Of a DNA stretch of 64,000 nt, positions 1-30,283 are shown one piece after another. The translations under genes and the position numbers were made by a program. Numbering within the stretch: position 1 is the first letter of the stretch; each line of letters begins with the position of its first letter. The stretch covers positions 3,720,001 through 3,784,000 of the forward strand of contig CDLV01000004.1 in NCBI GenBank assembly GCA_001244265.2, written 5' to 3'. The notes under the pieces are model-generated. The model worked only from the letters and a program-made list of their open reading frames with translations. It was not told the DNA's origin and made no database searches. This stretch comes from Microbotryum violaceum (taxonomy: Eukaryota).

Positions 1-362
1 TTCTGAGTAAAAAGGACCAGAGCCTTCTCTACGACGCCTATGCAGTATGGCCATGACGGGACCCTGATAGTGAGTGGCCAAGAACTCGTGCCAGAGCGCT
101 ACGGTTTGCTTTGCCACATTCGCATTTCTGCCAGCGTCGGACGATTCGGGGAGCGATGGGGCGGCGTAAAGACCTGCATGGCATACCGAACCTGATCCGT
201 CATAGCAAGAATGTAGCGATATGATTGGTAGTTTGACATGGACATTGCTGAACAGTTGAGGAACTTACGCCGGCATATGCATGAGTCAAAAGAGCGAATG
301 CAAGCTCGCGATGATCATTGTCGTTTGGGTCGAGACTGTTGGAATCAACGATGATCCCGAAA

Positions 363-669
363 TGATCAACAAAAGAACAACAACAGCTGGACCAGGAGTC
401 GAACCTGGGTCGCTTCCATTAATCGGAAAAGCTTTGACCACTAAGCTATCCGGCCCCTGATATCAGTGCAAGGTCTACTAACACCTTCAACAGAGACCTT
501 CCCATTGGATGAATCCCAAATATTGGATTGGTGGACACCGGCCCGTTTCTCGCATCTTGCGGGCGGTTTGTGTTATCATCGTCGACTTTCATTTAGTTTT
601 TCCGTAGGTCAATCAGGGGGAACAGGAATTGGGGGCAATATGATGAACAGTTTCTACAAAAAAAAAAAG
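363..669. mobile_element. 307-bp non-autonomous insertion with an A11 tract at one end and an internal tRNA-like cassette
   Basis: Flanked by GAAA at 359-362 and 670-673. A11 at 658-668. Removing the insert plus one GAAA restores an open minus-strand frame ...EEKSAAF|GIIVDSNSLDPNDNDHRELAFALLTHAYAG. Confidence 0.6.
385..455 (-). tRNA. tRNA-like sequence (probable pseudo-tRNA; TTA at the anticodon position as folded)
   Basis: Minus strand reads GGCCGGA TA GCTT AGTGGTCA AAGC T TTTCC GATTAAT GGAAG CGAC CCAGG TTCGACT CCTGG TCCAGCT. It folds as a cloverleaf with A box TAGCTTAGTGG, B box GGTTCGACTCC and TTTT about 10 nt downstream. There is one acceptor-stem mismatch and a non-canonical G32/A33. 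Confidence 0.7.
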
Positions 670-2731
670 GAAAGCAGCAGATTTTTCTTCCCTTATGCCG
701 GTGACGATCTGAACAAAGATCTCGTACAGAAGGTCGTTCTGAAAATCATCCTCGGCCTCGAAGGAGCAATCGTTCATGTCGACCCCACCCTGAGGGAGAA
801 AGATATTGTAAGCAGCTTGGTGCCAAAACATATGGCCACAACGCTGAATCGCACTCGAAGGAGCTGGTAGCGGGGCTTTGGAAAGGCTTACCGTTCCCGC
901 ACCGCAACGTAACTCTTTGGCCGCCCATTTAGTAGGTTGGAGATAGAGTACGGCCTTGGCGGTCCATGCCTCACGTTGCCTGTCCGGTCCAGTTTGTATG
1001 CTTTGTAGGTGTATTTCAGCGCCGTCCTTTTGATCAAATTCAAGACTCCCAGAGTCTTCGAAACGGTCTGCTTGAAGGAAACACAGGTGTTGTCAGCGCT
1101 GGCAAGGTATCACCGTAGGCGGGGAAGAATGCCGCACAAGGTCGGCGATCTTCGATGACCACTCGATAGGCCTCTCAGCGTTTTCGTTGTAGACCTCCGC
1201 TACGAGCTGAGACTGGGCGTAAAGCGATCTCTTTGTTCGCCACAGGCCTTGGCCGTCGAGAATATTCTGCATGAAGATAGTTTGGAACCAGGCGCTAGCG
1301 ACCATCTTCTGCTCTAGAGTCAAGTCGGATGCTTGTCGGCGGTTGGGCTTTGAATCCAAAGTCTCTTGATCTATTGGCTTGCGGTTGTGCGCCCCGTCGT
1401 AGGGGGCATTGACATCGAGGTTCCCTTTGACCAGGGGCGACGATCTCGCAAACGACAAAGACGAGCCTGGTGTACGACTGGCAACCCTACCTTGCGGTGG
1501 ATTGCGTCTTAAAGCTTGTCCGGCGATTGAGGACTGTAGAGCCTGAGCCTTGGGCTGGGGCGTCTGCAAGTGTTGATAAGACCCATTGAATGCCTGCACG
1601 CAAGTACCGAAACCTGCTTGAATGCTACTCACTACGCCTGGAATGACGCTTTCGTCATCATCGTCCATGATGCTGGTCGCTACCATGTTGACAATGGCGA
1701 CAGGTGCGGCCCCATCGGCGCCATCCACAACCGTGGGTCCGACTAAGTCTTCGCCCTCGTCCGAGTCTGCCTCGTCCTGACCGTTGTCCGAAAAGTCACA
1801 GGGGTCCTCGGCTTGTCCACCCAACACAAGGTCCTTTATAGCAGGATCGATATAGGGGTCCTCGTCGCCGCTATCTTCGTCGCTGTATGGCTCAACAGAA
1901 GTCTGCTGTGCGCGGAAAAGCTGACGTGTGGTATCTGCATGAACGGTGTGAAGAGAAGAGGTGCGTGTCACCGCAAGCCTGGATGCGTGTGCAGGGGCTG
2001 CTGGGGGTGCACTGGAAACAAGGACGGGCGAGGCCTCAGCTCACCTACATTCAAGGAAAGATACAGTAGAGTTAAGATATCACACTTGCACGTACTTCTC
2101 CTTCTGCTCCTTTGCGGCTTTGTGGTGTTGCCAAGCGTCTTGCTTCTTCGCTGCATTGATTTGGCTCACACCGACAGCGATGTCGAGTCGCCACAGCTTG
2201 TTGTTGGCCGCCTTCGTGTTTGCCGCCTTTCGTTTTTGCTGGGCTTGCGCCCTCTCCCGTCGGTCCGCTGGCGTGTTGCGGTCCTGCACTGTAGCAAGGC
2301 GCACAGACGCGGTGGCACTCGCTCGAGAAGATCGAGAAGACATGTGAACAGATTGCTGGACAGGCACTGGGTGGAAGGGCTACGACCGAGACAAGACGAG
2401 AGGCGAGGAAGGGACGGTGAATGAGTGAGGAGGAAGAGGGAGGGAGTCAAAAGGTGGTAAACAGAATGAGCGCGCATGACACGTCGCATTTGTTGTTCGG
2501 TGTTTTCTTAGGGCGCGGTTTAGCGTGCCCCAACATATGCAGTGGCCCCTATGCTGCCACGTCGCGCCGCAACGCGCTAGCTGTGCGGCGTAGTTTCGGA
2601 CAACTTAGCGCATTTCGAGAAAATACGCCTGCATTTAGGCTGTGTTTACGGGCGTCCCTTGCCTTCCTCCAGCTTCAGTCCACTCTCGCTGACAGTAGAC
2701 TCGTCGTACAGGCCTTCGCTCTCGTTCGCAA

Positions 2732-5700
2732 ATGAGTCAATTCCGATGCAACATTGCTGGTTGTCAGATATCATTCCACCATGTGCGCAATCTCGAAGCA
2801 CATTTGCACGTTCACAAAAGGCCCCGACCGCTCGACCGCGTGCTACCCACGTCATCGGCTGCTGAACGAAGTCACGTCCAAGTTCTTAGACAACAGCGCT
2901 CTCGCCAAGAGTTCTTTCGCCGACGGCGCAGACAACAGAAGAACTTCAGAAACGGTTGGCCCGACTGCGACGTCGATGGCTTCAACTCGAGCGGTAGCGA
3001 CTACGATGACGACTCCTCGAGCGACAGTTCATCAGACTCTGAGTATGATCATACCCTCGATGACCAGCCCGAGTGGGACGCTCGCCAAAAGAGAAAGTTT
3101 TCAGTAGAACAACCTCCGCTCGCAGGCTGGGCTTGCCGAGCCGACGGACAGCTTTGTGATGAACACACTCCGCCTCCAACGGTTCCGCATGCCCATTTGT
3201 TCGACCCGAACAACGTCTTTTATCCGTTCCAGAACGAAAAGGATTATCAGTATGCACTGTTGACTCGCTCAATGTCTGAGTCTCTATTCAATGCGATGGT
3301 CACTTTCAACAACTCGTTTCTCCAGGTATGTTCGGCCGAAGTTGTGGACGCCGGAACGGGGTCAAATCCGCCATCTAAGTCCCGAGATATCACTCCGCAG
3401 GCGGACCATGCCTTCAGCAACAGGCTTCAACTCAGATCTACAATCGAAAAAATACCCTATGGCGAGCTTTGTGCAAGTGTTTTGAGCTCTCCAATCTTCC
3501 ACCTAACTCTAAATCGTGCTCCTCCATTACCTAGCTCCTCACACTGAATGGCGCGAAGAAAAAATCATCGTAACTGCGGAGGACTTAGGGTGGTCGAATA
3601 GTGATGCTGAACTTCCATTTTTGCAGCTGGTAAGCGCTGCCAGTCCAGGACAGGGACACGAGCAGGTTCGAGCCGATTAACCTCGACACCTCTATTCACA
3701 GGAACATACGTTCCGATGTCGGGACGCGCATCATGTGCTCCAAAACCTTTTCTTCAATCCCGTATTCTGCGGTCACCAGCATCTGCGGCCCATGAAGGTG
3801 TTTGAGGTCAAATCAAACGGTCAGGAGCAACGGGTATATGGGGCGCCCCATACCGCAGACAAAGTGTGGGAGATGCAAGTAAGCGCTGGATGGATGTTGA
3901 AATCGCCCGGCGCAAAGTCCATCAAGAGAACTGACTAGTAGCCGCCCGCAGGACACTCTCGACAACCCGACCGATGTGGCCGTTCGCATAGACACCAGCT
4001 CGGATTCAACTGTCTTGTCGATCGGAACTGGGGCCGCCTCGGCCCATCCTGTATATATGTCTCTAGAAGTCAACGCCGGATTCCTCAAATGTGAAAACCA
4101 TGGCGGTTTGGTCGTTATAGCTTTCCTTCCTAGAGTGGAAAGTGAGTATCGCCCGGGGCTTCTATTTTGCCAACGGCGGGCTGGCTATTGCTAATGCTGT
4201 GGCATCCGCCTCCCACTCAAATCCAAGGGGCGGACAAAGGCAATGACGAGATGTATCGTATATACAAACGCACGGTGCTCTATCGAGCTCTAGAGTAAGC
4301 TGTCTCGGCTCGACCGACGTAGCGGAGAGCTCTGATAGAATAGCTCGAATCCTACAGGATATTGTGGGCTCCAATTAGACACCTTCTTCCAGGCCGACAC
4401 CTCTTCCAATTTGCGGATGGCCACTATCGATACATCAGGGTGTACTTTGGACCGGTATCTGTTGACTATCCGGAGCCGTGTTGGCTTACATCCCTTGTTC
4501 AGGGCTACATTCCTTGGTAGGTGGACGACAGCTAGCGTTTGATCGCCTGCAGAGTTGACTTACATGGGCTCACTCTGTTTGCGCTGCTAGCTGTGTACAA
4601 GAGCCACTCAAGCTTCAAGAAGGCCCTGCCGCCCCTCGTACGAGTGCCGATGCCTAGTACAAAGTCAGAAGGGCAGCAAGCCAGCTCAGGACAATCACAG
4701 CGCAGAAAAAGGCGGCCAAAGAAGAAGGCTGTCACCTTGGCAGGGTAAATTTTGCAGGATTTCCCCCTCAGCTCCTGTTCACTGAATCAGTCCTTTCCTG
4801 AGGCTCAGACCGTCTGGGTTTGTTTAGGGGTCAATGGGCATGAGTGAAAGGCACGAGACTGCTCTCGAGCCTCACTGATTCCGAATCCAAACAGAAAGGA
4901 TCAAGCGGTGTATTCGCAGGCGAAGAAACACTACTAAAAGGACTGAGGTCAAGAGACACGGCGGCGCCGCGCGCGAGGGCAAGCGTGAGGCCGCAGAGGT
5001 CGGCTCGAGGTCGTCGTGAGGCGTAAGCGGAGCGGCGCCTTACAATGAGCTCATGGTGGCTGATCCTCTCCACCAGCTGATCAAAGGTCAGTGTTGCTAG
5101 CTATAGACGGCTTCTCCTTTTCATTGGTCCTTTCTTTCTCTCCTCGTCCTCTCATCAGGCATGGTGAAAGACATCACTATTGACGACTTGTTCATTGAGA
5201 CATGCGCACAAATCGCCGCTGACGCTCATCCCAGGAGAAACAAGCAAAAACTCGACAAACTAATTGACAGAATCGAGCTGAAGTAAGTTTGATTGAATCA
5301 ATCAAGAACAAGCATGCGATCTGAGATGTCGAATATTGTACAACAGTATGCGTTTGATGCCCCTTTATTCACAACTGCGTCGCTTCAAGGACGGGTTTCA
5401 GCATTCCAACTGGACCGGTAAACATACGCGCAACTTGATGAAAGTGAGTGAATTCTTTCAACTTCATGCGTTTTTAATAGTAGCGTCGATTCTGATATGT
5501 TCTGCCGGGATCACGCAGATTTTTCCTGCCAGTGTGTGGGGTAAGTCGCGCCTCCAAAACACTACATCTTCGGACCGCAATGCTTGTGCTGACTGATTCA
5601 TTCACATGCTTCTAAGCAGGTGTTCAGATCATCGGAGACGACTACGAATCACGAACCCTCGTCGACGAAAACGCCCAAATTATGACACTGCTTTCTGTGC

Positions 5701-7324
5701 TAATTATGTACGCCACATCCCTAGAGGCCACGGCCGATGACGTAGACGATATGGATTTTGCGTACAATGCTTACATGTTTGTGAGTCAATGCCCTCTGAA
5801 CGAATTTTTGCATGCTTCAACTTACGTGACTTTCCGTGCCTTCGGATTTCAGCTTGCGAGAAACACGTATGATCGATTTCGAATTGTCGACGGACAGGTC
5901 GAAAAATTGGGGTTCAATTGGCCCGCCTTCACTCTGTATTACACTACGCGGAATGGACCAAGAAGTGGGGCGTTCCTGTACACTCCGATACAAACAGATC
6001 GGAGGTCAGTCTCTGATCTGATAGAATTCTTGAGCAAACGTTACACTGACCTACTGTATCGACCCAAGCGTGCCCATATTGACTCGGTCAAGGTCGCGTA
6101 TAGAGCCAACAACAAGTGCAACACCGCTTCGCAACTGATCAACTACTCAAGACGAGCCGATAAAATCAGATCTTTGGAGAATGTGATAGATCTTGACAAG
6201 CTTGTGAGATCTACTGGAGATCGAATCATATTACCCATACCTGATCCAGTTCCACATGAGTTCCACCTTTCTGCGCGACCTTGTGAGTTTCCGGCCTGTA
6301 ACTGCAAGTCTTGCCTAGCCCTTGGCTGACTTTGAACGCATCTGCCATCCCATTCAGCCGGCAACAATCGATGCATGATCACGATGAATGAACTCCAGGT
6401 CTCTCTCCAACAGCCTCGCCTTCTTCAGCTCGTGCGGTCCACTGTCCCCATTCTCTTCTTTGAGTGTTCAATAGGCGTCAAACTGACGTATGTGGCACCT
6501 GGCCTTGTAGACAACATGCTACCTCCTCGAATTTGGACACTCAAGTGAAGAGGTCGAATCCTTGGACGATGAGAAAGCAAAGTGGTATCACAGCTTCAAA
6601 GTCTCCAACCGCATATATCAGAACACACCGGAACAGACGAGGGATGATGCAGGTGAGCTGGTACTAGGAGAACGCTGCACTGGTCTCCTCAGCATACTGA
6701 TTTGTCTCATGTACGCTCAGATATCATCAAACACGTCATACGAGCAACCTTTCGTTACAAGCACGGCAATCAGGATGGATACTGTACTCGCTTTGACTGT
6801 GTCTTTGTGCACAATTGAACTACGGTCCAATCGGCAAATACCACAACCATGCGACTTTCAAGGACAGAGCCTGGCACTTCGTCCTTCCTTTCACGATCTT
6901 CCGCTTGAGAGGTATTTTTACCTTGGACATAGGTGGCACTTGCCACGAGCTTTGTATTGGAGATGAATTTGAGTGGGTGAGAACTACTACCGTGCGGTGA
7001 TCATGGTCGCTAAGTTCGAACACCATTACAAATCTGTCCTAATCTCCGCCTTTGCAGTGCCCAAACAGTGAACAAAATCTGGCAATCCTAAAGCCGGTGC
7101 TGAAAAAGCGATTGAAAAGTGATAGGCAGTGTTTGCAGCAAATCTTCCGTGTTCAGGACGTATTGCGCCCCGCATTTGTTCAGCCGTTGTTAGGCCATGC
7201 GGAATTGGCACCCGACCTGGATTTTCAGAATGTGATGGATCAATGGAATGGGGAGTTTGTGGTGAATCTCGCCCAGTATCAACATGTTTTTTGTCACCTT
7301 GGGCGCGGCGCCATTTCACCATAA
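2732..7324 (+). mobile_element. Multi-exon Plavaka-family transposase gene with N-terminal C2H2 zinc finger; intactness uncertain
   Basis: Exon motifs in the expected order: CNIAGC...HLHVH, FYPFQNEKDY, LFFNPVF...RVYGAPHTADKVWEMQ, SDSTVLSIGTG...HPVYMSL, DGHYRYIRVYFGPVSVDYPE (about 4415-4480), DPLHQLIKG (about 5060), LRRFKDG...WTGKHTRNLMKV, and C-terminal RPAFVQP...EFVVNLAQYQH. These resemble Plavaka transposases as I recall them. Element termini were not found. Confidence 0.8.
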
Positions 7325-7739
7325 ACCTATTACGTGAAGCATTGCAGGGCACATTGCGGCCTGCTCGACGGCCTCCAGTGGCGGACGCATAGATTTTGCT
7401 GGAAAGTTATTTTTGTAGAAATCACGGTGTTATATGGACCAACTACTTCCTGAATATATGCTCCTTAGCCTCATTGAATAAAATCAAGTGAAGCGCCTTT
7501 TGATGGGATTTTAGCACAGAAACTTGTTGGGGTCAAGAAAGCAATCCGCCCGCTCGTGTGCAAGTACAGGCTTTGCAGTTACGTATACGAAGTGTAAGCG
7601 ACGTCAAACGTTAAGCGCGCGTTCGACTCCCTGGACCGCTCGCGCGACGTGTAGTGGTAAACTGAGTCAAGTTGTAGCGGGATAAGGGACAACTAGTGGT
7701 GTGTCCAACCGTTCAACAAGAACGAACTATCCAAGGGCG

Positions 7740-8500
7740 TCTGACAACGAAAAGACGAGATTGAAACCCAGCGAGTGTAGCGAGATGGAAGCCAAGAAGA
7801 TACGGAAATGAACGTAGTGGGAAGGCAGGCTTAACCGAAGAAGAGAAAGGAAGAATTGTTCGAAAGAATGAAGTAGTTTTCACGCGAGTGACAAGGGATG
7901 GAGGGTGGGATCGATCAAGGAGCTTTGGCTTTGCAAGAACAAGCTCAGAGTGATGTCAGTTGGCTGCAACTGGTGAGAATAGGGATAGCTACCTTCGTCT
8001 CAGCATACCTTTGCAAGAACAACCGGGACTCTGTGATGGCGCGGAGGCTAGCAGAGGCTGCGTTTCGAGCAGGCGGGTTCGGCAGAAGGACTGCTGAGAG
8101 ATGCAGGGGTCGCGAGTCAGTGAAGTGGTCCAGCAAGGACTACCAACTAACTGCCCGTACAGGACTGGCAAGATCACTGTAGGAATCAAAGTGGTAAGTT
8201 CACCGTGCAACAAGCTTGGGTGACCAATAACACTTACCCCGAGTTACTTCTGGACAGAGCCACGTCGAGGATTTAGACGAGCTAGGTGCGGCTAGCCGAG
8301 AAATGTCCTGCAAGATGAAACGCTCGGTCAGTGACTTCGTCAACTGTGAGGTGATCTTGGGAGTGAGGAACGCACCTGTATCAACGGTGGTAAACGCAGC
8401 GGCAGAGGCTGGTGGAGACGTCGACGGTGCAGTTAAGGCCCTGAAGGGAACGTGCAGCGCGAGTGACCGCCTGTGAGCCCGCGTGTGTATGAGGCACAGC
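7740..8500 (-). pseudogene. Decayed spliced gene remnant of unknown family
   Basis: Minus strand shows intron-like GTGCGT...CAG (about 8376-8328) and GTAAGT...ACAG (about 8237-8177) segments between short frames that contain stops. No domain recognised; boundaries approximate. Confidence 0.25.
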
Positions 8501-9474: not shown

Positions 9475-14260
<4,786 letters not shown>

Positions 14261-15939: not shown

Positions 15940-16908
<969 letters not shown>

Positions 16909-17004
16909 CTTTTTTTTTCACACCGGTCAAAGACGCACACTGCCACGTGCGCCAGCGACACACCCACGGAACAAACAAACGACAACGAACGGTAACAGAC
17001 GAAC

Positions 17005-20000: not shown

Positions 20001-21566
20001 TTCCCGGAGGAACCCACAGCCGGCCGCCAGGCGAGCGACAATGTCAACGTGCTGGCGGAGGCAACTCTCGATCCTGCCTTCCTTTGCAAACTCAGGGACG
20101 GTTACCGCAAGGACCCGCAATGTCAACAAGCTATCAAGAACATTGACTCAACACCAGGCTACTCAGTCGACAATGGAATCGCACGGTTCGAAGGACGGAT
20201 CCTCCTGCCAAAGACGGCGAACTTTTGGGAGGACGCGCTACATGACGCGCATGATGCCGCAGGCCATTTTGGACTACACAAGACGTATGAACACCTACGC
20301 CGCAACTTTATCTGGTTGGGAATGAAGGATGCATGCAAAGATTACGTTGAGTCCTGTGCTGCTTGTCAGACAATGAAGATGCATGGCACCGGTTTTGCCG
20401 GTCGGATCCACAATTTGAATGTGCCTGACCGGCCAATGCGGGAAGTTGGCCTAGACTTTGTCGGGCCACTTGTACCTAGCAATGGTAATGACGCACTGCT
20501 TACGGTAACAGATCGCCTTTCAGGCTACGTTCGCCTCATCCCCTGCCGCACGACGGACGACGCGACTACCACGGCGGACCGGTTCTTTGAGGGGTGGCAT
20601 TGACACTTCGGCATGCCACGAGTGCTGGTCTCCGACCGCGACAAGCTCTTCACAAGCGAGTTCTGGCGAGCGTACATGGGCCAGCTGGGAACGAAACTGG
20701 CAACATCGACGTCTTTCCACCCACAAACGGATGGCCGAAGCGAGCGAACAAATCGGACCGTGATCCAAGTCCTGCGAACAATGGTCAACCGACGGCAAAA
20801 TGACTGGTCAAAGCACTTGGCTACGGTGGAGTTTGTGATCAACTCCAGTATGAACAGGTCGACGGGGAAGACACCATTTGAAGTGGTACTCGGGTTCACG
20901 CCAGAGCTGACACCGATCACCCCAGTGGAAGGCTCAACCACATCACAGGCAGTCAAATCCATCGTGGAACAACGTGAAGCAGCGGTTGCGGAAGCCCGAG
21001 ACAATTTGGCAATTGCAAAGATCCGACAGGCCAACCAGAGCAACAAGGCGAGGAAACCGGAGCCCGGGTTTGCAGTTGGCGACATGGTCTTAGTCGACTC
21101 GCGGGATCGACGACTGCGGTACAAGGCCGATGGGGAAGCACGGTCAGCCAAACTCTTTCCCCGGTTTGACGGCCCCTATGAAGTCCTAGCAGCACGACCC
21201 GAAACCTCAAATTACAAGCTGAAGCTCAAGGCGGGGGACAAGTCGCACAACGTCTTCCACGCCTCCAAGCTCCGACGCTGGGTAAAGAACAATGGGGTGG
21301 TGTTCCCAGGACGAGAGGCAACGGAACCAGCGGCCATTATCGTCCAAGGAAACGAGGAGTGGGAGGTAGAACGGATTGTGGACGAAAAGGGGAAGGGGTC
21401 AAGGAAGAGGTTCTTGGTGAAATGGAAGGGGTGGGCAGACAGCGACAACACATGGGAGCCATGCTCACACCTGGAAGACACCGCAGCGTTGGAAGAGTGG
21501 GAGAGTGGGAAGGCGGGGGGAGGACAAGGCAAGGAGGGAGGGGAGTTTGGTTTAGGTGGTGGAGAG

Positions 21567-21593
<27 letters not shown>
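17005..21593 (+). pseudogene. Gypsy B gag-pol polyprotein with one frameshift (about 19066) and one nonsense codon (20601-20603)
   Basis: [17 protein letters not shown] knuckle, LADSGAS protease, YLDD, TDAS, LDFVGP, FDGPY and WEVERIVD...FLVKWKGW chromodomain. The defects are evident by comparison with the copy at 26951-30283. Confidence 0.93.
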
Positions 21594-23244
<1,651 letters not shown>

Positions 23245-23257
23245 TCAAAAAAAAAAT

Positions 23258-23500
23258 TGGAAGCACCGCGTGCAGCGGTGCTCCAGAACGATAGACAGGA
23301 TCAAACAATAGTAATTCACTAGAACCTCGGGTCAGTGAGCTCGCATACTACACATATGAGAAAAGGGGCACCCACCTAGAACCTCGGGTCAGTGAGCTGG
23401 CGAAAGCCAAGGGAGGTTCTAGGCGCGCGCAAGCTATTCAATTAAGCCAAAAGTTCTATCGCCTTCCATTGTACCTCGGGCAAAGGCCTCAGGCCTTGCA
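23258..23500 (-). repeat. 5' LTR of Gypsy A (243 bp, including a 57-bp internal addition)
   Basis: Matches 10885-11070 plus a 23-bp duplication surrounding 34 unrelated bases. Confidence 0.93.
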
Positions 23501-26500
23501 CCACCCAGACTGGACCACCCCTAACCACTTTCAACTCTTGCCTACCGATGTCTCGGCTTGACTGGCATGGAAGCACGGGGGGGGGGGGGGGGGGGGGGGT
23601 CAGAACCCAATCATATCTCTGATTCTCTCCAATCCTATTTACTTCTCATGCCACTATTTCACTTCTACTTTGCACTCCCTCTTTAGCCTATTCCCACTAC
23701 GCCGGATCCCAGCGCCTGATTGAGACTCGGTTGACACATTGGCTTGGGTTGAAGTCGCGCGCCTCGCGGGCACTCGTCTCTCTTCCTTCTTCATCCATCT
23801 TCCATCCTCAATCTTGTGCTCGTACTCAACCCCTTGAGTCGGGATCCAGACTTCTAATACTGGCGAAGGCCCGGTTTGCGCGCCAGTTGAGTCGGCGCGC
23901 CGCGCACTTGCGCCTTGCTCCCAAAATTTGACCAAGTTCCACTCTGTCTGTAGGCGCAAGAGGCGCATTTCCTTCTTACGTCGCCGCACAGCGACTACTG
24001 CAATCTACGACACTCGGTTGAGGATGTTTTACGATCGGATCTTGGGCAGGTGCTATTTTGAGAAATGGAGATCACACCGGCATGGAATATCCAGAATGTT
24101 GTGGACATCTGGAACAACCAGTTGACTGTAACTTGTGAGCATGTGATCGCTTTGGGAGGGTATTTAGCATCAAAATTCTACGTGATCCGAGAACACCTCA
24201 GAGTCGCGGGAAGGGGAAAGGGAGGGCGGCGCAAATGGATCTGTCAGAATAGCCGCAGTCATGAGTTTGCTCAATTGAATCATCAGTATAGCTTCAGTTC
24301 TGGTAGGAGAATATTTTGCAATACTGCAAACATTGTCGAGAGCAAATCATGTCTTTATGTATCTAGTGCAGGTCGAGTACTTGATATACTGATACCTAGA
24401 GTTGGTAATAGGAAGAATAGCAACCAAGGTCTTGACATTGTTACACCTCACCACAGCACTCCTCCAAATCTTAAGTGTCAACTTCATCAAACAGTGCCAA
24501 TTTGAGTGCCATTTTGTACCATTTTGCGCACTTTAGCGGTTTAGCGGCTCGATATTTATTTGGTGGCATTTAGCAAAGTGGCAAAGTTGCTGATGAAGAG
24601 GAGTGAGGTCGTTGGTCCTAAGCCGTGCCATTATGAGTAGAACGGAAGGATGTATATACATATAATGAGATAATGATTGTGGCTAGTGACATTTGTGAGA
24701 ACACTTGGTGATGTGCTACTAGCTTTGTTAGGACAGGTCCACGGAAAGGCAGTCAATGATTTTCCTTGTCCGAGTTGCTGAGGCAGGAAATACGGCGAGG
24801 AATGTTATACAAGGTGTCTCACCCCATAGAGGCACATCCAGCAGCTTTGAGATGATTGATCGTCTTAGTCATTGTATTGCAGCCTAGGGTGTGGGGGGGC
24901 CCGGGGAGGGGGGCGGATTACTCCGTCCGGGTCCGGACGATGGCCGCGGCTGGGACGAGAGCCGGGGGTGCAGGCACGTTTTCCAACTACATGAGATCCG
25001 GGTGAGAGTGGGTCTTACCAAGGGTGGACGTACTTGGTGGTCATGTAAAAGGCCTCGTCAAATTTCAGGGTGATACATGGCATACTACACAAGATACAGC
25101 GGATTGCCCCGCTACGTGGTAGATGCACCGTCCTTAATTGGTAAACGCACCTTTCTTCCGGAGCAAATGCACCAAACTTGCGCAAAGAATGCACCATTTG
25201 TAAGTGAACTGTGTACCTTACTACCTGGGTAGATGTGTCAAGCTTCGGGGGTAAGCGCGCCCGCATAATTGGTAATTGCACCATTTGCTCGCGGCATTAA
25301 CCCACCTTCCTAGTCGCATCTAATGGGGGACCCTGGGCGAGCCCCAGGGCCCAGCCTGTAAAATGCGCCGGACTTAACCAGTTTGGACAAGTTCGGAGTC
25401 AGTCTTCGCACTTCGGCCGAAACCACTGCACACGTGAACTGGGTCGTTAATTTTATCGGAGTCAGGGAGTGAACTTTGCCTATCATCATCAACTTCTTTT
25501 GGAAGCTTAGTTGCTAACTCGACTTATCAATCCGAATTGGGTCGCCAGCTGTTTCCCGAAAAGCCGTTCCGATCGAGAAGTCCGACTTGTGAGCAGGGAG
25601 CTTTGTTGCACTTGTCACGGCCTGTCGCATGCTGCTCACAACTCTATCATCCAATCACCAACCATTTCATCACCCTTCGCCTCTCTAATATTTGTTCACG
25701 ATTCACGTGCACTCAGACAGATCGTAGTCATGGCTTCGATTTGTCCGATACTATAGTCTGGGTCGTCTCTGATTCAATCGCGTGCGTTCGATCTGCATGA
25801 GCATAGCTATCACAATGAACAGCACGATTTAAGCGGTCAAACATGTTGGAGTGCACACCATAGGTGTCTCATCCCCTAGATGTTCTTCTCTGGTGTGTGC
25901 GGCTTGCTCGGCACGGTCACGCCTAGCCTCGCATCGTCGCACGGCAAGACCCCCCACCCCCACATCAATTGACAACAACCCACACGCTTGTTGTATGTAT
26001 ATCGATCAGGCGCTTTTGCTGATATGCAGATCCCAGAATAGTACATGTGAGCTATCTTGACTTTAGTCTCTGCGTTTATGCCGCTGCAAATTGATTAAAG
26101 CGCGGTGACTCGTCAGGAGTCATTCGCTCGGCGGCTCTGTCTGTCTCCAACGCTTCTTCAAATAGTAGTCAAAGGAGGCTGATATGGGCCTTTCGAGTAG
26201 TGCCTGGCCACGCAACAAGCACAATCGTCTTCTCATGCAAAGGGAGCAATCTACGTTAAAATAATTGAGCTATATGCTGCATAGTTTGTGGTCTTTCCCC
26301 TTTGTGGCTACGTAGATCGTGTGCAAGTCAAGGCGGTCCGAGCTCGGTGTGCCGGGTATCCCAATTGTCGTACGCGACGGCGCGTCGATAATTGGCTTTT
26401 GGCTTATCATGCTGGTAGGTATACTCGAAAGACAAGGTGGAGCAAATTTAATGTATTCACACTTTTTGCTCACCTGATATCATATCAAACGGCAGAGTGA

Positions 26501-26950
26501 ATCATGGGCCCGGAAGTCGAGATTTCAACGCGCCGTCAAAGCACCGACTCGCGCCGATCTCTTTGGGACTGAGGGACGCCATTATATGGACAAAAGTGAC
26601 TCGAGTCCCCAGCTTCGCATCATACTAGGACGCTTCAAGATCGTCTCCAAAGAATCGGCCACACTCTACGCTGGACAACGGTGGAATTCAGTGTATTGAT
26701 TTCGATGAGACTGGCATTTCCACACGCTCAAGAGTCAAATTCGCGCCTTCGATCACAAGCAGCAACTACCGACGGTCTAGGAGAGATTTGCAATATGTTT
26801 ACCCGTGAGCGTATTTCGAAGGAAGTCCCCAGGTGCTTTCTAGGATATGTTTGTAGACTTGACTGGTCTAACACGGCGCATATTTACATCAGATTTCCTC
26901 ATGGTGGCGAATGAAAAGGCGCAGCTACTTGGGGTGCCTGTCAACTAGGG

Positions 26951-29900
26951 TGTAATACACCCCGTTGGAGTGTACACCTGAGCGGCGACGACAAGGATCA
27001 CAGGACCAAAGTATGTAGAATTGACACTGGACACTCGTATCAGTCGCTAGTATGACAATGCCTTCTGATCCACCTTGTGCTCACCTGGACACTCGTATCA
27101 GTCGCTGGAGAGAGACTAAGAGTGCCCAGGCGCGCGTCCCCTCCTCCTAAGGCCCAGGCGCACGGGCCTTACACTCTCCTCCCTCCTTACACCCTCCCCT
27201 CCTTGCCTTGTCCTCCCCCTACCTTCCCCCTCTCCCACTCTTCCAACGCCGCGGTGTCCTCCAGGTGTGAGCACGGCTCCCATGTGTTGTCGCTGTCTGC
27301 CCACCCCGTCCATTTCACCAAGAACCTCTTCCTTGACCCCTTTCCCTTTTTGTCCACAATCCGTTCTACCTCCCACTCCTCGTTTCCTTGGACAATAATG
27401 GCCGCTGGTTCCGTTGCCTCTCGTCCTGGGAACACCACCCCATTGTTCTTTACCCAGTGTCGGAGCTTGGAGGCGTGGAAGACGTTGTGCGACTTGTCCC
27501 CCACCTTGAGCTTCAGCTTGTAATTTGAGGTTTCGGGTCGTGCTGCTAGGACTTCGTAGGGGCCGTCAAACCGGGGAAAGAGTTTGGCTGACCGTGCTTC
27601 CCCATCGGCCTTGTACCGCAGTCGTCAATCCCGCGAGTCGCCTAAGACCATGTCGCCAACTGCAAACCCGGGCTCCGGTTTCCTTGCCTTGTTGCTCTGG
27701 TTGGCCTGCCGGATCTTTGCAATTGCCAAATTGTCTCGGGCTTCCGCAACTGCTGCTTCACGTTGTTCCACGGTGGATTTGACTGCCTGTGATGTGGTTG
27801 AGCCTTCCACTGGGGTGATCGGTGTCAGCTCCGGCGTGAACCCGAGTACCACTTCAAATGGTGTCTTCCCCGTCGACCTGTTCATACTGGAGTTGATCAC
27901 AAACTCCACCATAGCCAAGTACTTTGACCAGTCGTTTTGCCGTCGGTTGACCATTGTTCGCAGGACTTGGATCACAGTCCGATTTGTTCGCTCGCTTTGG
28001 CCGTCCGTTTGCGGGTGGAAAGCCGTCAATGTTGCCAGTTTCGTTCCCAGCTGGCCCATGTACGCTCGCCAGAACTCGCTTGTGAAGAGCTTGCCGAGAC
28101 CAGCACTTGTGGCATGCCAAAGTGTCGATGCCACCCCTTGAAGAACCGGTCCGCGATTGTAGTCGCGTCGTCCGTTGTGCGGCAAGGGATGAGGCGATCT
28201 GTTACCGTAAGCAGTGCGTCATTACCGTTGCTAGGTACAAGTGGCCCAACACAGTCTAGGCCAACTTCCCGCATTGGCCGGTCAGGCACATTCAAATTGT
28301 GGATCCGACCGGCGAAACCGGTGCCATGCATCTTCATTGTCTGACAAGCAGCACAGAACTCAACGTAATCTTTGCACGCATCCTTCATTCCCGACCAGAT
28401 AAAGTTGCGGCGCAGGTGTTCATACGTCTTGTGTAGTCCAAAATGGCCTGCGGCATCATGCGCGTCATGTAGCGCGTCCTCCCAAAAGTTCCCCGTCTTT
28501 GGCAGGAGGATCCGTCCCTCGAACCGTGCGATTCCATTGTCTACTGAGTAGCCTGGTGTTGAGTCGATGTTCTTGATAGCTTGTTGATATTGCGGGTCCT
28601 TGCGGTAACCGTCCCTGAGTTTGCGAAGGAAGGCCGGATCGAGAGTCGCCTCCGCCAGCACGTTGACAGCGTCGCTCGCATGGCGGCCAGCTGTGGGTTC
28701 CTCCGGGAAAGAGCAACGACTCAATGCATCAGCCACTGTGTTCTCTGGACCTCGTACATATAAAATCTCAAAGTCGTACTCGGCCAGTCGTTCGGTTCAT
28801 CGAGCTTGCCGTCGTGAAAGGCTTGGCTGCTTCATGAAGCCCGCCAAGGAGTGGTGGTCTGTGAGGATCTTGAATCGAACACCCAAAAGGTCCGCCCGCC
28901 AGTGATGAAGGGTGTCCACAATTGCAAGCAATTCCATCTCGTGTGCTGCATAGTTGCCTTCCGCTGGGTTGTACTGTCGTGACCAATAGCCTGCCGGCAT
29001 GGCCGTCTGCCATTCCTTTCCTCGACTGAGTGCCGCCCCAATTCCCCGATTGCGATTGCTCGCGTCCGTCATCAGCCATAATGGGTCGCCCTTGTCGGAA
29101 TGGTCAATCCGTCATCAGCCACAATGGGTCGCCCTTGTCGGAATGGTCAATGGGATGTAGCGAAGGAAGTTTCCCAACCAAGGACTTGATCGCCTCAAAT
29201 ACCTTGTTGTGCTCTCCCGTCCAGCCTTCGTCGACATGCACCCCTTTCCGTGTCAGCGGGACTAAAACCGCCGTCAAGTCTGCAAGCTTGTCGATGAACT
29301 TCCGCAGATACTGCACCAGACCCAGGAATCCCCGCAATTGCTTCACCGTCCTTGGTCGCGGCCACTGTTGGATTCGCTCCACCTTGTTGGGGTCGACCTT
29401 GATGCCTTCCCGAGTGATCTGGTGGCCGAGGAAAAAGCACTCGGCAGCAAACAGTTCCGTCTTCTTCGGCGATACGTACAGATCCGCCCGTCTCAGCGCC
29501 TCCAGGACTAGTCGCACCCGTCGTTCATGTTCCTCCAAGGCGTCGGCAAAGATTGTGATGTCGTCAAGGTACATGAAACACACACTCCCGATAAGGTCTG
29601 CGAGTGCCTCGTTGACTCGGCGCTGATGCGTTGCTGGCGCGTTGCAGAGTCCCATTGGCATTACCGTCGACTCGTACAATCCCCACGGTCTCACGATTGC
29701 CGTCTTCGGGATGTCGACCTCGGCCATCTTGGTTTGGAAGAAGGAGTTTGTCATGTCGATCTTCCCCCAGAATCGCGCATTTGAGCAGACCGACAGAATC
29801 TCGTCCGGAAGTGGTAGAAGTGTGCGATCGCGGACCGTCCCTTTGTTGAGTACTCGGTAGTCACAGACCATGCGTGGTTAGATCGACGGGTCCTTATCCA

Positions 29901-30283
29901 TACCTTTCTTTTGGATGACAAACGCCGGGGACGCGAACTCTGATGACGACTTTCGAAGGCGGCCGTTGGCGACGTGCTGATCAATCAGGCACTTCCAGGC
30001 TTCTCGGTAACGGTGTGCCGCTCAATAACCCTTCAAGTTCGGTTTTGTTGCTCCGTCCTTCAGCTCAATTCAGTGTTGGACCGGTGATTCATACGTCAAA
30101 ACCGGAGGAATATCCCCCGGGAACCGATCCGCAAACTCGACCCGTAGCTTTGCCTCCCGCCGTCGCAACTCCGCCAACGAGCGTGATCGGAATCTTTATG
30201 AACGAGGTAACATGAAATGCGCGTTCTTGGCCTTTGATTGCAGTTTTGACCAATGTAGGAACAGGGAGACGATGCACAACTAA
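26951..30283 (-). mobile_element. 5'-truncated, decayed second copy of Gypsy family B
   Basis: LTR at 26951-27173. The pol is near-identical to 18170-21560 but has stops, small deletions, an internal deletion of about 300 bp near 30178 and a 43-bp tandem duplication (29065-29150). Lacks gag and the 5' LTR. Confidence 0.93.

Follow-up and report, generated by a model that had tools for sequence, protein, structure and literature searches.

The extra DNA at positions 337-668 of the analysed window (the whole stretch of 64 kb) is made of two insertions and is not one unit. According to the best explanation, to which we give a probability of roughly 0.8, two independent retroelement insertions took place 12 bp apart within a single exon of a fungal gene. 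The segment 337-492 would be the solo LTR of a tRNA-bearing miniature LTR retrotransposon, and 510-668 would be the 5'-truncated 3' end of a LINE. The main result is a correction: a seemingly new element architecture is replaced by two ordinary insertions. The features of the region are collected in Table 1.

Table 1. Features of the interrupted exon and of the two insertions (window positions).
Feature	Position	Strand	Evidence
Host gene, several exons, runs off the window start	1..2289	(-)	tblastn of P0001/P0004 onto the window
GAGAC, left copy of 5-bp target-site duplication	332..336		Adjoins repeat end 336/337
LTR-like unit, 156 bp, ends TGTTGGAA...TTCAACA	337..492	(-), strand from the tRNA-like sequence	Contig ends, termini, duplication
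T4 run, possible weak Pol III stop	371..374	(-)	Read directly; function putative
tRNA-like sequence, 72 nt	384..455	(-)	ARAGORN and Rfam RF00005
GAGAC, right copy of the duplication	493..497		Read directly
Surviving host exon bases CTTCC CATT	498..506	(-)	Encode Q-W-E-G together with GGA
GGA, left copy of putative 3-bp duplication, host bases	507..509		Read directly
5'-truncated 3' end of an APE-type LINE, A11 at 658-668	510..668	(+)	Homology to L001
GGA, right copy of putative 3-bp duplication; host exon resumes	669..671		Read directly and paralogue alignment

Repeat ends and abundance of the two halves

The ends of the repeats were mapped with Logan contigs of four related organisms (X1, X2, X3 and X7), from which 348, 186, 109 and 146 contig pieces were placed on window positions 100-1000. 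In the contigs of all four organisms, repeat ends were found at 336/337, 492 and 666-668, with unlike flanks beyond them, and each half was present in many copies. The summed word depth in X2 was 61.5 in the flanks, 4,668-8,261 over 348-471 and 13,791-43,906 over 534-657, these contig depth figures not being copy numbers. A blastn search of the 64-kb window with a word size of 7 detected no second copy of any part; the strongest other match was 21 nt long (E 0.23). The runs listed as containing the segment's words included no RNA runs, an outcome that is uninformative on expression.

The 156-bp unit resembles a solo LTR

The unit at 337-492 has TG...CA termini, and its terminal inverted repeat consists of five perfect bases (TGTTG/CAACA). 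The flanking GAGAC duplication is perfect and lies exactly at the contig ends, which were mapped independently; the chance of such a match is about 1 in 1024. Together, TG...CA ends and a 5-bp duplication form the signature of LTRs, and the combination of these ends with the short inverted termini and the perfect duplication points to an integrase-mediated insertion. Loose ends with unlike flanks occurred at 336/337 in 20, 28, 19 and 20 contigs and at 492 in 7, 6, 5 and 7 contigs of X1, X2, X3 and X7, respectively. The depth of the unit in X2 was approximately 75-135 times that of the flanks, a ratio that is not a formal copy number, and pieces holding the whole unit were found inside long contigs (e.g., X2 record 13, 20,290 nt).

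The minus-strand tRNA-like cloverleaf reported in the preliminary description is present within this unit. It reached 46.9 bits (E 3.4e-8) with the Rfam tRNA family (RF00005), the gathering score of which is 29, and was folded by ARAGORN with the anticodon TTA. The A box TAGCTTAGTGG and the B box GGTTCGACTCC are intact and located inside the 156-bp unit. The anticodon loop reads GATTAAT, with an A at position 33, its letters at 421 and 424 vary among copies, and the acceptor stem contains one C-A mismatch. The earlier proposal of a non-autonomous element with a Pol III unit holds for the 156-bp part with its tRNA-like promoter, the activity of which is putative, and does not extend to the whole A-tailed segment. 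The T4 run is located 10-13 nt past the 3' end of the tRNA-like sequence and could serve as a Pol III stop inside the LTR, which counts against the LTR reading.

Likened by its described features and not by sequence, the closest fit for the unit is a solo LTR of the Helenus/TRIMp3 type, with a Pol III promoter in the LTR. In the cited sections of Kojima (2024, PMC10886601), fungal Helenus LTRs contain tRNA-like sequences, are associated with 5-bp duplications and frequently survive as solo LTRs, the published Helenus (TRIMp3) LTRs being approximately 120-320 bp long. The unit shares with them its LTR-like size, its many copies, its occurrence as a single unit (solo LTRs are common in Helenus) and a tRNA-like sequence in which the A and B boxes are conserved and the anticodon arm is non-functional, as well as the TG...CA ends and the 5-bp duplication that characterize fungal members. 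It differs from them in the T4 run behind the tRNA-like part and in its host genus, since that dedicated survey, in the section cited, gives Helenus as absent from Microbotryum. A further difference is that no full-length element, with two LTRs, a primer-binding site and a polypurine tract, was seen in the window or in the contig pieces.

The unit might instead be a complete small element and not an LTR, i.e., either a miniature DNA transposon that creates 5-bp duplications or a short, integrase-inserted retroposon. Consistent with this, only single units were seen, with no paired LTRs, and several of them stood alone within long contigs (records 4, 12, 13 and 24). However, a perfect inverted repeat of five bases is LTR-like rather than MITE-like, the TG...CA ends and the 5-bp duplication also argue for an LTR, and the neighbours recurring on either side of the unit in three organisms are suggestive of a larger parent element. 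The consensus of these neighbours, although of low agreement (0.45-0.5), shared 22-24 of 30 places beside 336 and 18-20 of 30 places beside 492 among X2, X3 and X7; part of the copies therefore appear to have a recurrent neighbour on both sides, as expected of an LTR that continues into an internal region. Next to 336, the consensus is suggestive of the complement of a tRNA 3' end, as in a primer-binding site, its agreement being too low to use, and neither neighbour string is clearly purine-rich. A complete small element is considered improbable, and the solo LTR is preferred.

A solo LTR at 337-492 would have arisen from a non-autonomous miniature LTR retrotransposon mobilised in trans by an autonomous LTR element, after which LTR-LTR recombination would have left one LTR. 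The window's other LTR elements, with 226-bp LTRs at 16685/21566 and further LTRs at 10885/23258, were considered as the autonomous partner and rejected. No such partner was identified in the window, because their ends do not resemble the TGTTGGAA...TTCAACA of the 156-bp unit. The pattern of the unit gave 0 matches in the metagenome scan, and the pattern scans of viral contigs also gave 0 matches.

The A-tailed fragment derives from a LINE

Window positions 510-667 were identical to positions 1940-2097 of the metagenome contig L001 at 146 of 158 bases (92%), and the L001 stretch ends in A10. This contig was the single locus recovered with the LINE-tail pattern in the metagenome scan. Its homologous stretch is located about 500 bp behind the LINE ORF2, on the same strand, and the upstream sequence on that strand gave RVT_1 and zf-RVT matches, both just below the Pfam cut-offs. 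The L001 ORF matched all 45 of the 45 listed Microbotryum proteins, many of them with PF03372 (endonuclease), PF00078 and PF13966. The contig depth was highest over the LINE fragment, and its ends at 666-668 were followed by differing flanks. The LINE start at 510 is uncertain by up to 4 nt, because the letters 'catt' precede it both in the window and in L001. The GGA pair, with a chance of 1 in 64, is weak as evidence of a duplication because of its shortness (3 bp). In the mechanism proposed, target-primed reverse transcription would have begun at the poly(A) end of a LINE RNA and copied it into the site, and an early halt of copying would have left 159 bp of the 3' end, with the A11 tract, and a 3-bp duplication. 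Truncated copies of APE-type LINEs (encoding endonuclease, reverse transcriptase and zf-RVT) are like this fragment in their 3' end homology and poly(A) tail and in a short duplication, putative here, as well as in the excess of 3' over 5' sequence in genomes. The only unusual feature of the present copy is its place, 54 bp before the tRNA-like unit.

It is also conceivable, at a low probability, that 510-668 represents a separate, SINE-like short retroposon with a poly(A) tail, which shares the tail of the LINE. Many contig pieces start near 536-544, the depth is 3-4 times lower in 503-533 than in 534-564, and the L001 alignment begins exactly at 510. That start, however, is dictated by the window copy itself, and the loose end of X1 at 540 was found to be a diverged version of 510-539, hence divergence and not an end. 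In addition, the L001 stretch follows ORF2 on the same strand with no second tail between them. A 5'-truncated LINE is the reading retained for this half.

Host exon, empty site and the single-element reading

By sequence comparison, the host gene is restricted to Microbotryum and has no assigned function. Only five relatives of its protein were present among 1.84 billion representatives, the four that were looked up carrying Microbotryum names or no name, and no Pfam family was found in the pieces of the gene. The gene is divergent to a decayed Plavaka transposase, fragments of which (PF18759) lie at 3681-4517(+), and the view that the gene is part of a Plavaka element and interrupted by extra mobile DNA is supported.

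In tblastn, the alignment of the intact paralogues P0001 and P0004 reaches 670 and starts again at 334, the residues between these points being QWPKEG or QWPKGG (P0001/P0004). The 12 host bases left between the insertions (498-509) still encode Q-W-E-G, a part of the QW(PK)EG motif of intact Microbotryum paralogues. An empty site, the existence of which had been raised as a check, was seen in one contig (X2 record 9, 2,348 nt), which connects 336 to 669 via 15 other letters; the first five and the last four of these correspond to 498-506. The window paralogue is 6 nt (the P-K codons) shorter than the empty-site contig. We take this as variation between paralogues, although it could also be a small deletion tied to one of the insertions.

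The preliminary description had presented a single 307-bp non-autonomous element at 363-669, flanked by GAAA as its duplication, ending in an A tail and carrying a Pol III cassette in antisense. We consider such a composite element extremely improbable, even though the letters on which it was based are present: GAAA on both sides (359-362 and 670-673), the A11 tract at 658-668, TGAT at 363 and ATCA at 462. Removal of 363-673 (311 bp) also leaves the minus-strand frame open, as had been stated, but the resulting peptide, GIIVDSNS, is absent from the intact paralogues. The proposed unit and its ends are not upheld, as the contigs of the four organisms place the repeat ends at the three points given above instead of 363/669. 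Positions 337-362 are repeat and not host, the two GAAA copies are a chance match of four letters, the left one being inside the 156-bp repeat, and host bases together with the perfect GAGAC duplication are found inside the supposed unit. None of the listed runs contained the whole composite, the best holding 0.72 of its sampled words, and the span 496-535 was crossed by none of the 32 contig pieces listed. A second copy of the composite could exist, because these 32 were drawn from 802 pieces; among the listed data the composite is single-copy, which is the outcome that the preliminary description had named as its own refutation, and the multiple copies once predicted for the whole segment are those of its halves. 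The 8-bp inverted repeat CCCCTGAT/ATCAGGGG at 454 and 612 is likewise present, but it bridges two unrelated elements and is expected by chance; against the one pair observed, 2000 shuffles gave a mean of 0.72, with at least one in 43% of shuffles.

A tRNA-derived SINE (SINE2) would similarly combine a tRNA-like Pol III promoter with a LINE-derived poly(A) tail within a few hundred bases. In the present case, in contrast, the head and the tail are on opposite strands, separated by the host bases 498-509, and each is flanked by a duplication of its own, the one at the tail being putative; they are therefore not one transcript-derived unit. The antisense head formerly ascribed to one element and the A tail belong to separate insertions and, as these two elements are in opposite orientation, the antisense tRNA is an accident. 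A large spliceosomal intron of the host gene, the alternative against which the preliminary description was set, agrees with the open frame after removal but has a probability close to nil, as there is no GT..AG on the minus strand at 337/668 or 363/673, the empty-site contig and the paralogous proteins have coding sequence at the site, and both halves are dispersed repeats.

Relation to tRNA-directed LINEs and implications

A many-copy family of tRNA-bearing LTR-like units exists in anther-smut fungi, for which Table 2 of the published genome annotation (PMC4469406) gives 0 SINEs. Such units inflate tRNA predictions and spread putative Pol III promoters across the genome.

The geometry of the two insertions matches that of the tRNA-directed LINEs of amoebae. 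Nucleotide 1 of the tRNA-like sequence (455) and the first base of the LINE (510) are separated by 54 bp (456-509) and placed head to head; the TRE5 elements of Dictyostelium insert 40-54 bp upstream in the same head-to-head orientation, as described in the cited parts of PMC3159450 and PMC5911963. By this analogy, the Microbotryum LINE may target Pol III transcription complexes, as TRE5 elements do, a suggestion that we regard as tentative and rather unlikely. In distance and orientation, this one copy agrees with TRE5-A, the L1-type LINE of Dictyostelium discoideum that is aimed at tRNA genes. It differs in that the target is a tRNA-like sequence within a repeat and not a tRNA gene, and in that there are one case and one possible second case. 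Any statement on which insertion came first, or on a connection between the two, would be an inference. If the suggestion were true, tRNA-bearing LTRs would be landing pads for LINEs, and the element would be the first Pol III-directed non-LTR retrotransposon of fungi, the table of a 2018 review listing Pol III-directed LINEs from dictyostelids only. No tRNA was found within the 4 kb of L001, although the 5' end of its LINE is outside these 4 kb. The possible second case is provided by a contig of another organism (X1) that connects 492 to 572; the LTR end seen in the window there adjoins a copy of this LINE tail that is truncated at a different point.

Two adjacent repeats in the interrupted gene

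The site is an ordinary truncated LINE tail beside a solo LTR-like unit. The preliminary description had taken 363-669 for one GAAA-flanked, A-tailed element with an antisense tRNA-like cassette; its observations were partly confirmed, and its interpretation is only partly supported. Part of 363-669 was present in 20 of the 23 public runs listed; the maximum share of its sampled words in any of these runs was 0.72, and at least half were found in eight. Logan contigs of four related organisms (X1, X2, X3 and X7) were aligned to window positions 100-1000 at a likeness threshold of 85%, and nearly all the pieces (348, 186, 109 and 146, respectively) lay inside 336-668. The summed word depth of the X2 contigs, which is not equal to copy number, was 61.5 in the flanks, 4,668-8,261 in bins 348-471 and 13,791-43,906 in bins 534-657, and this shape was repeated in the other three organisms. 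The depth profile shows two repeat families, each many-copied. Loose ends with unlike continuations were found at 336/337 (7+13 contigs in X1, 7+21 in X2, 8+11 in X3 and 6+14 in X7), and further loose ends at 492 (7, 6, 5 and 7 contigs, respectively) and at 666-668 (4 in X1, 3+1 in X3 and 4+4 in X7, with none among those listed for X2); the agreement of continuations at these ends was 0.38-0.6. Complete 337-492 pieces were also embedded in long contigs whose sequence to the left and right is unrelated (for example, X2 record 13, 20,290 nt; X7 record 24, 4,290 nt). Together, the loose ends and the whole pieces place the repeat ends at 337, 492 and about 668, not at 363 and 669. The supposed composite is single-copy as far as the runs and contigs examined go.

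One X2 contig (record 9, 2,348 nt) spans 100-336 and 669-1000, with eight differing letters per part, and joins 336 to 669 via 15 other letters, giving an empty site. On the minus strand these letters read Q-W-P-K-E-G in frame, and the intact Microbotryum paralogues P0001 and P0004 contain ...SAAF-QWPKEG-LDPND... and ...SAAF-QWPKGG-LDPND..., respectively. When both paralogues were searched against the window with tblastn, the alignment ended at 670 and restarted at 334. Because empty-site letters recur between the two repeats, host DNA survives there, and each repeat has its own flanking pair, a perfect 5-bp duplication (GAGAC) for the first and a putative 3-bp one (GGA, chance 1 in 64) for the second. 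The chance of a 5-bp GAGAC match at the contig-defined ends is about 1 in 1024. Only 6 nt of host sequence (the P-K codons) are missing, with the frame kept, and this may be paralogue variation.

Features of the insertion site and its surroundings (window coordinates)
Feature	Position	Strand	Remarks
Interrupted gene	~2289 to beyond position 1	-	short GTAAGT-type introns
GAGAC, left copy	332-336		adjoins 156-bp repeat
156-bp repeat	337-492	-
tRNA-like cloverleaf, 72 nt	455-384	-	unit positions 38-109 on tRNA strand
GAGAC, right copy	493-497
CTTCC CATT	498-506		letters 1-5 and 12-15 of the 15 that fill the empty site
GGA, left copy	507-509
Second repeat	510-668	+
GGA, right copy	669-671		exon continues from here
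Decayed Plavaka transposase	3681-4517	+	PF18759, divergent to interrupted gene

Several features reported for the single element exist but are to be read differently. The cloverleaf (ARAGORN, Rfam) and the A11 tract (658-668) are both present and belong to different elements; the antisense tRNA is no longer puzzling, since the two elements are oppositely oriented. GAAA does occur at 359 and 670 as a chance match, its left copy lying within the LTR-like unit. The arms of the 8-bp inverted repeat (454 and 612) fall in two unrelated elements, and such a pair is at chance level (one observed versus a mean of 0.72, with at least one in 43% of 2000 shuffles). Restoration of the frame upon excision is real but not diagnostic, since removal of either 337-668 or 363-673 leaves it open; excision by the earlier ends yields the peptide GIIVDSNS, which is absent from P0001 and P0004. 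An intron reading of the inserted segment was rejected.

The Plavaka setting of the host gene

The window DNA is fungal. The Plavaka setting was borne out by nearby PF18759 pieces (37.7 and 30.4 bits, with a third of 24.1 bits under the cut-off). What is interrupted, however, is a passenger gene rather than the transposase. Only five related proteins were found among 1.84 billion representatives, three of the four looked up carrying Microbotryum names, and no Pfam family matched the gene. Paralogues of this minus-strand gene (1-2289) occur on several Microbotryum chromosomes, as for a Plavaka passenger gene. The three transposase pieces (PF18759 profile positions 40-240) are in differing frames, so this copy is decayed.

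The tRNA-bearing LTR-like unit

The 156-bp unit starts TGTTGGAA and ends TTCAACA, with TG...CA termini and five perfect inverted bases, and is bounded by a 5-bp duplication. ARAGORN assigned anticodon TTA to its tRNA-like sequence, the Rfam tRNA model scored 46.9 bits (E 3.4e-8), and the A and B boxes are intact. The acceptor stem contains a C-A mismatch, an A occupies position 33, where U is usual, and anticodon-loop letters vary among copies (alternative letter at 33-63% of depth at 421 and 46-77% at 424). Given these three features, the sequence looks like a promoter relic rather than a working suppressor tRNA.

Kojima (PMC10886601) describes Helenus elements as tRNA-bearing TRIMs (miniature LTR retrotransposons), which in fungi have 5-bp duplications and are in many cases left as solo LTRs; their tRNA-like parts are mostly non-functional, with predicted suppressors among them, and Helenus is reported there as absent from Microbotryum. 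The present unit resembles them in its duplication and its non-functional-looking tRNA-like part, and its single state would fit a solo LTR. No full element around it was seen in the window or contigs. In comparisons of the loose-end consensus among X2, X3 and X7, 22-24 of 30 letters beside 336 and 18-20 of 30 beside 492 agreed, with an agreement within each consensus of only 0.45-0.5. Some copies therefore have common neighbour sequence on both sides, as would be expected of LTRs joined to an internal region, allowing for the low-agreement consensus, in which neither a primer-binding site nor a polypurine tract was clearly readable. The unit is probably a solo LTR-like member of a tRNA-bearing miniature retrotransposon family, which seems to be unrecorded for the genus.

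The LINE tail

When metagenomes were scanned for 22 letters taken from 571-592, one locus was returned (L001, about 4 kb). Its positions 1940-2097 share 146 of 158 bases with window 510-667, up to an A10 tract beyond which the sequence is unrelated. L001 also has two weak domain matches upstream on that strand, one to RVT_1 (25.4 bits against a cut-off of 29.6) and one to zf-RVT (27.0 bits against 27.5). Among the matches listed, a 314-aa ORF of L001 matched 45 proteins, all Microbotryum-named, with identity up to 92%, many bearing PF03372 (AP endonuclease), PF00078 and PF13966. Because of this homology and these ORF matches, 510-668 is, judged by sequence, the 5'-truncated 3' end of an endonuclease-RT-zinc-finger LINE, poly(A) tail included. 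The depth climbing toward the tail fits the usual LINE 5' truncation. Table 2 of the M. lychnidis-dioicae annotation (PMC4469406) gives 392 LINE copies and 0 SINEs.

In the L001 copy, ORF2 is broken by one or more in-frame stops, and the 3' untranslated region contains a CT-rich simple stretch (1850-1905, ~40-90 bp ahead of the window-shared part); the copy adjoins an unrelated sequence with an ORF on the opposite strand (2084-2443). The window copies of the two repeats deviate from nearly all other aligned copies at 378, 381, 385, 589, 593 and 609; at the last three, in the LINE tail, the family has C and the window T.

Distance between the LINE and the tRNA-like sequence

The LINE fragment and the tRNA-like sequence lie head to head, their 5' ends pointing at each other across the 54 bp that separate tRNA-like nucleotide 1 (455) from the start of the LINE (510). 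Insertions 12 bp apart are improbable by chance for any given copy, although this proximity is less striking for a site singled out as the strangest in a stretch full of repeats. A review table gives an insertion distance of 40-54 bp and names Pol III-directed non-LTR elements from dictyostelids only (PMC5911963, PMC5006619); compared with these LINEs, the present spacing falls within the range. In one X1 contig, the unit's end at 492 is followed, after an unspecified number of letters, by the LINE tail from 572 on the same relative strand. For tRNA-linked insertion this amounts to one case and one hint. No tRNA was found within the 4 kb of L001, which excludes the LINE 5' end. A LINE directed at Pol III or tRNA-like targets, like the TRE5 elements of Dictyostelium, is unlikely.

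Other LTR elements in the window

The termini of the 156-bp unit do not resemble the LTR ends of the window's other LTR elements. An LTR retrotransposon nest occupies 9100-30300 and includes a chromodomain Gypsy with 226-bp LTRs (16685-16910 and 21566-21791), of which an inverted copy, 95-97% alike, lies at 26950-30283. This Gypsy sits within another LTR element (LTRs ~10885-11072 and 23258-23502), one LTR of which has a 57-nt extra stretch. An A10 tract (23247-23256) lies immediately ahead of the second outer LTR and a G23 run (23577-23599) just behind it; a C18 run (11201-11218) follows the partner LTR, so that homopolymers of opposite letters occupy matching places in the two flanks.
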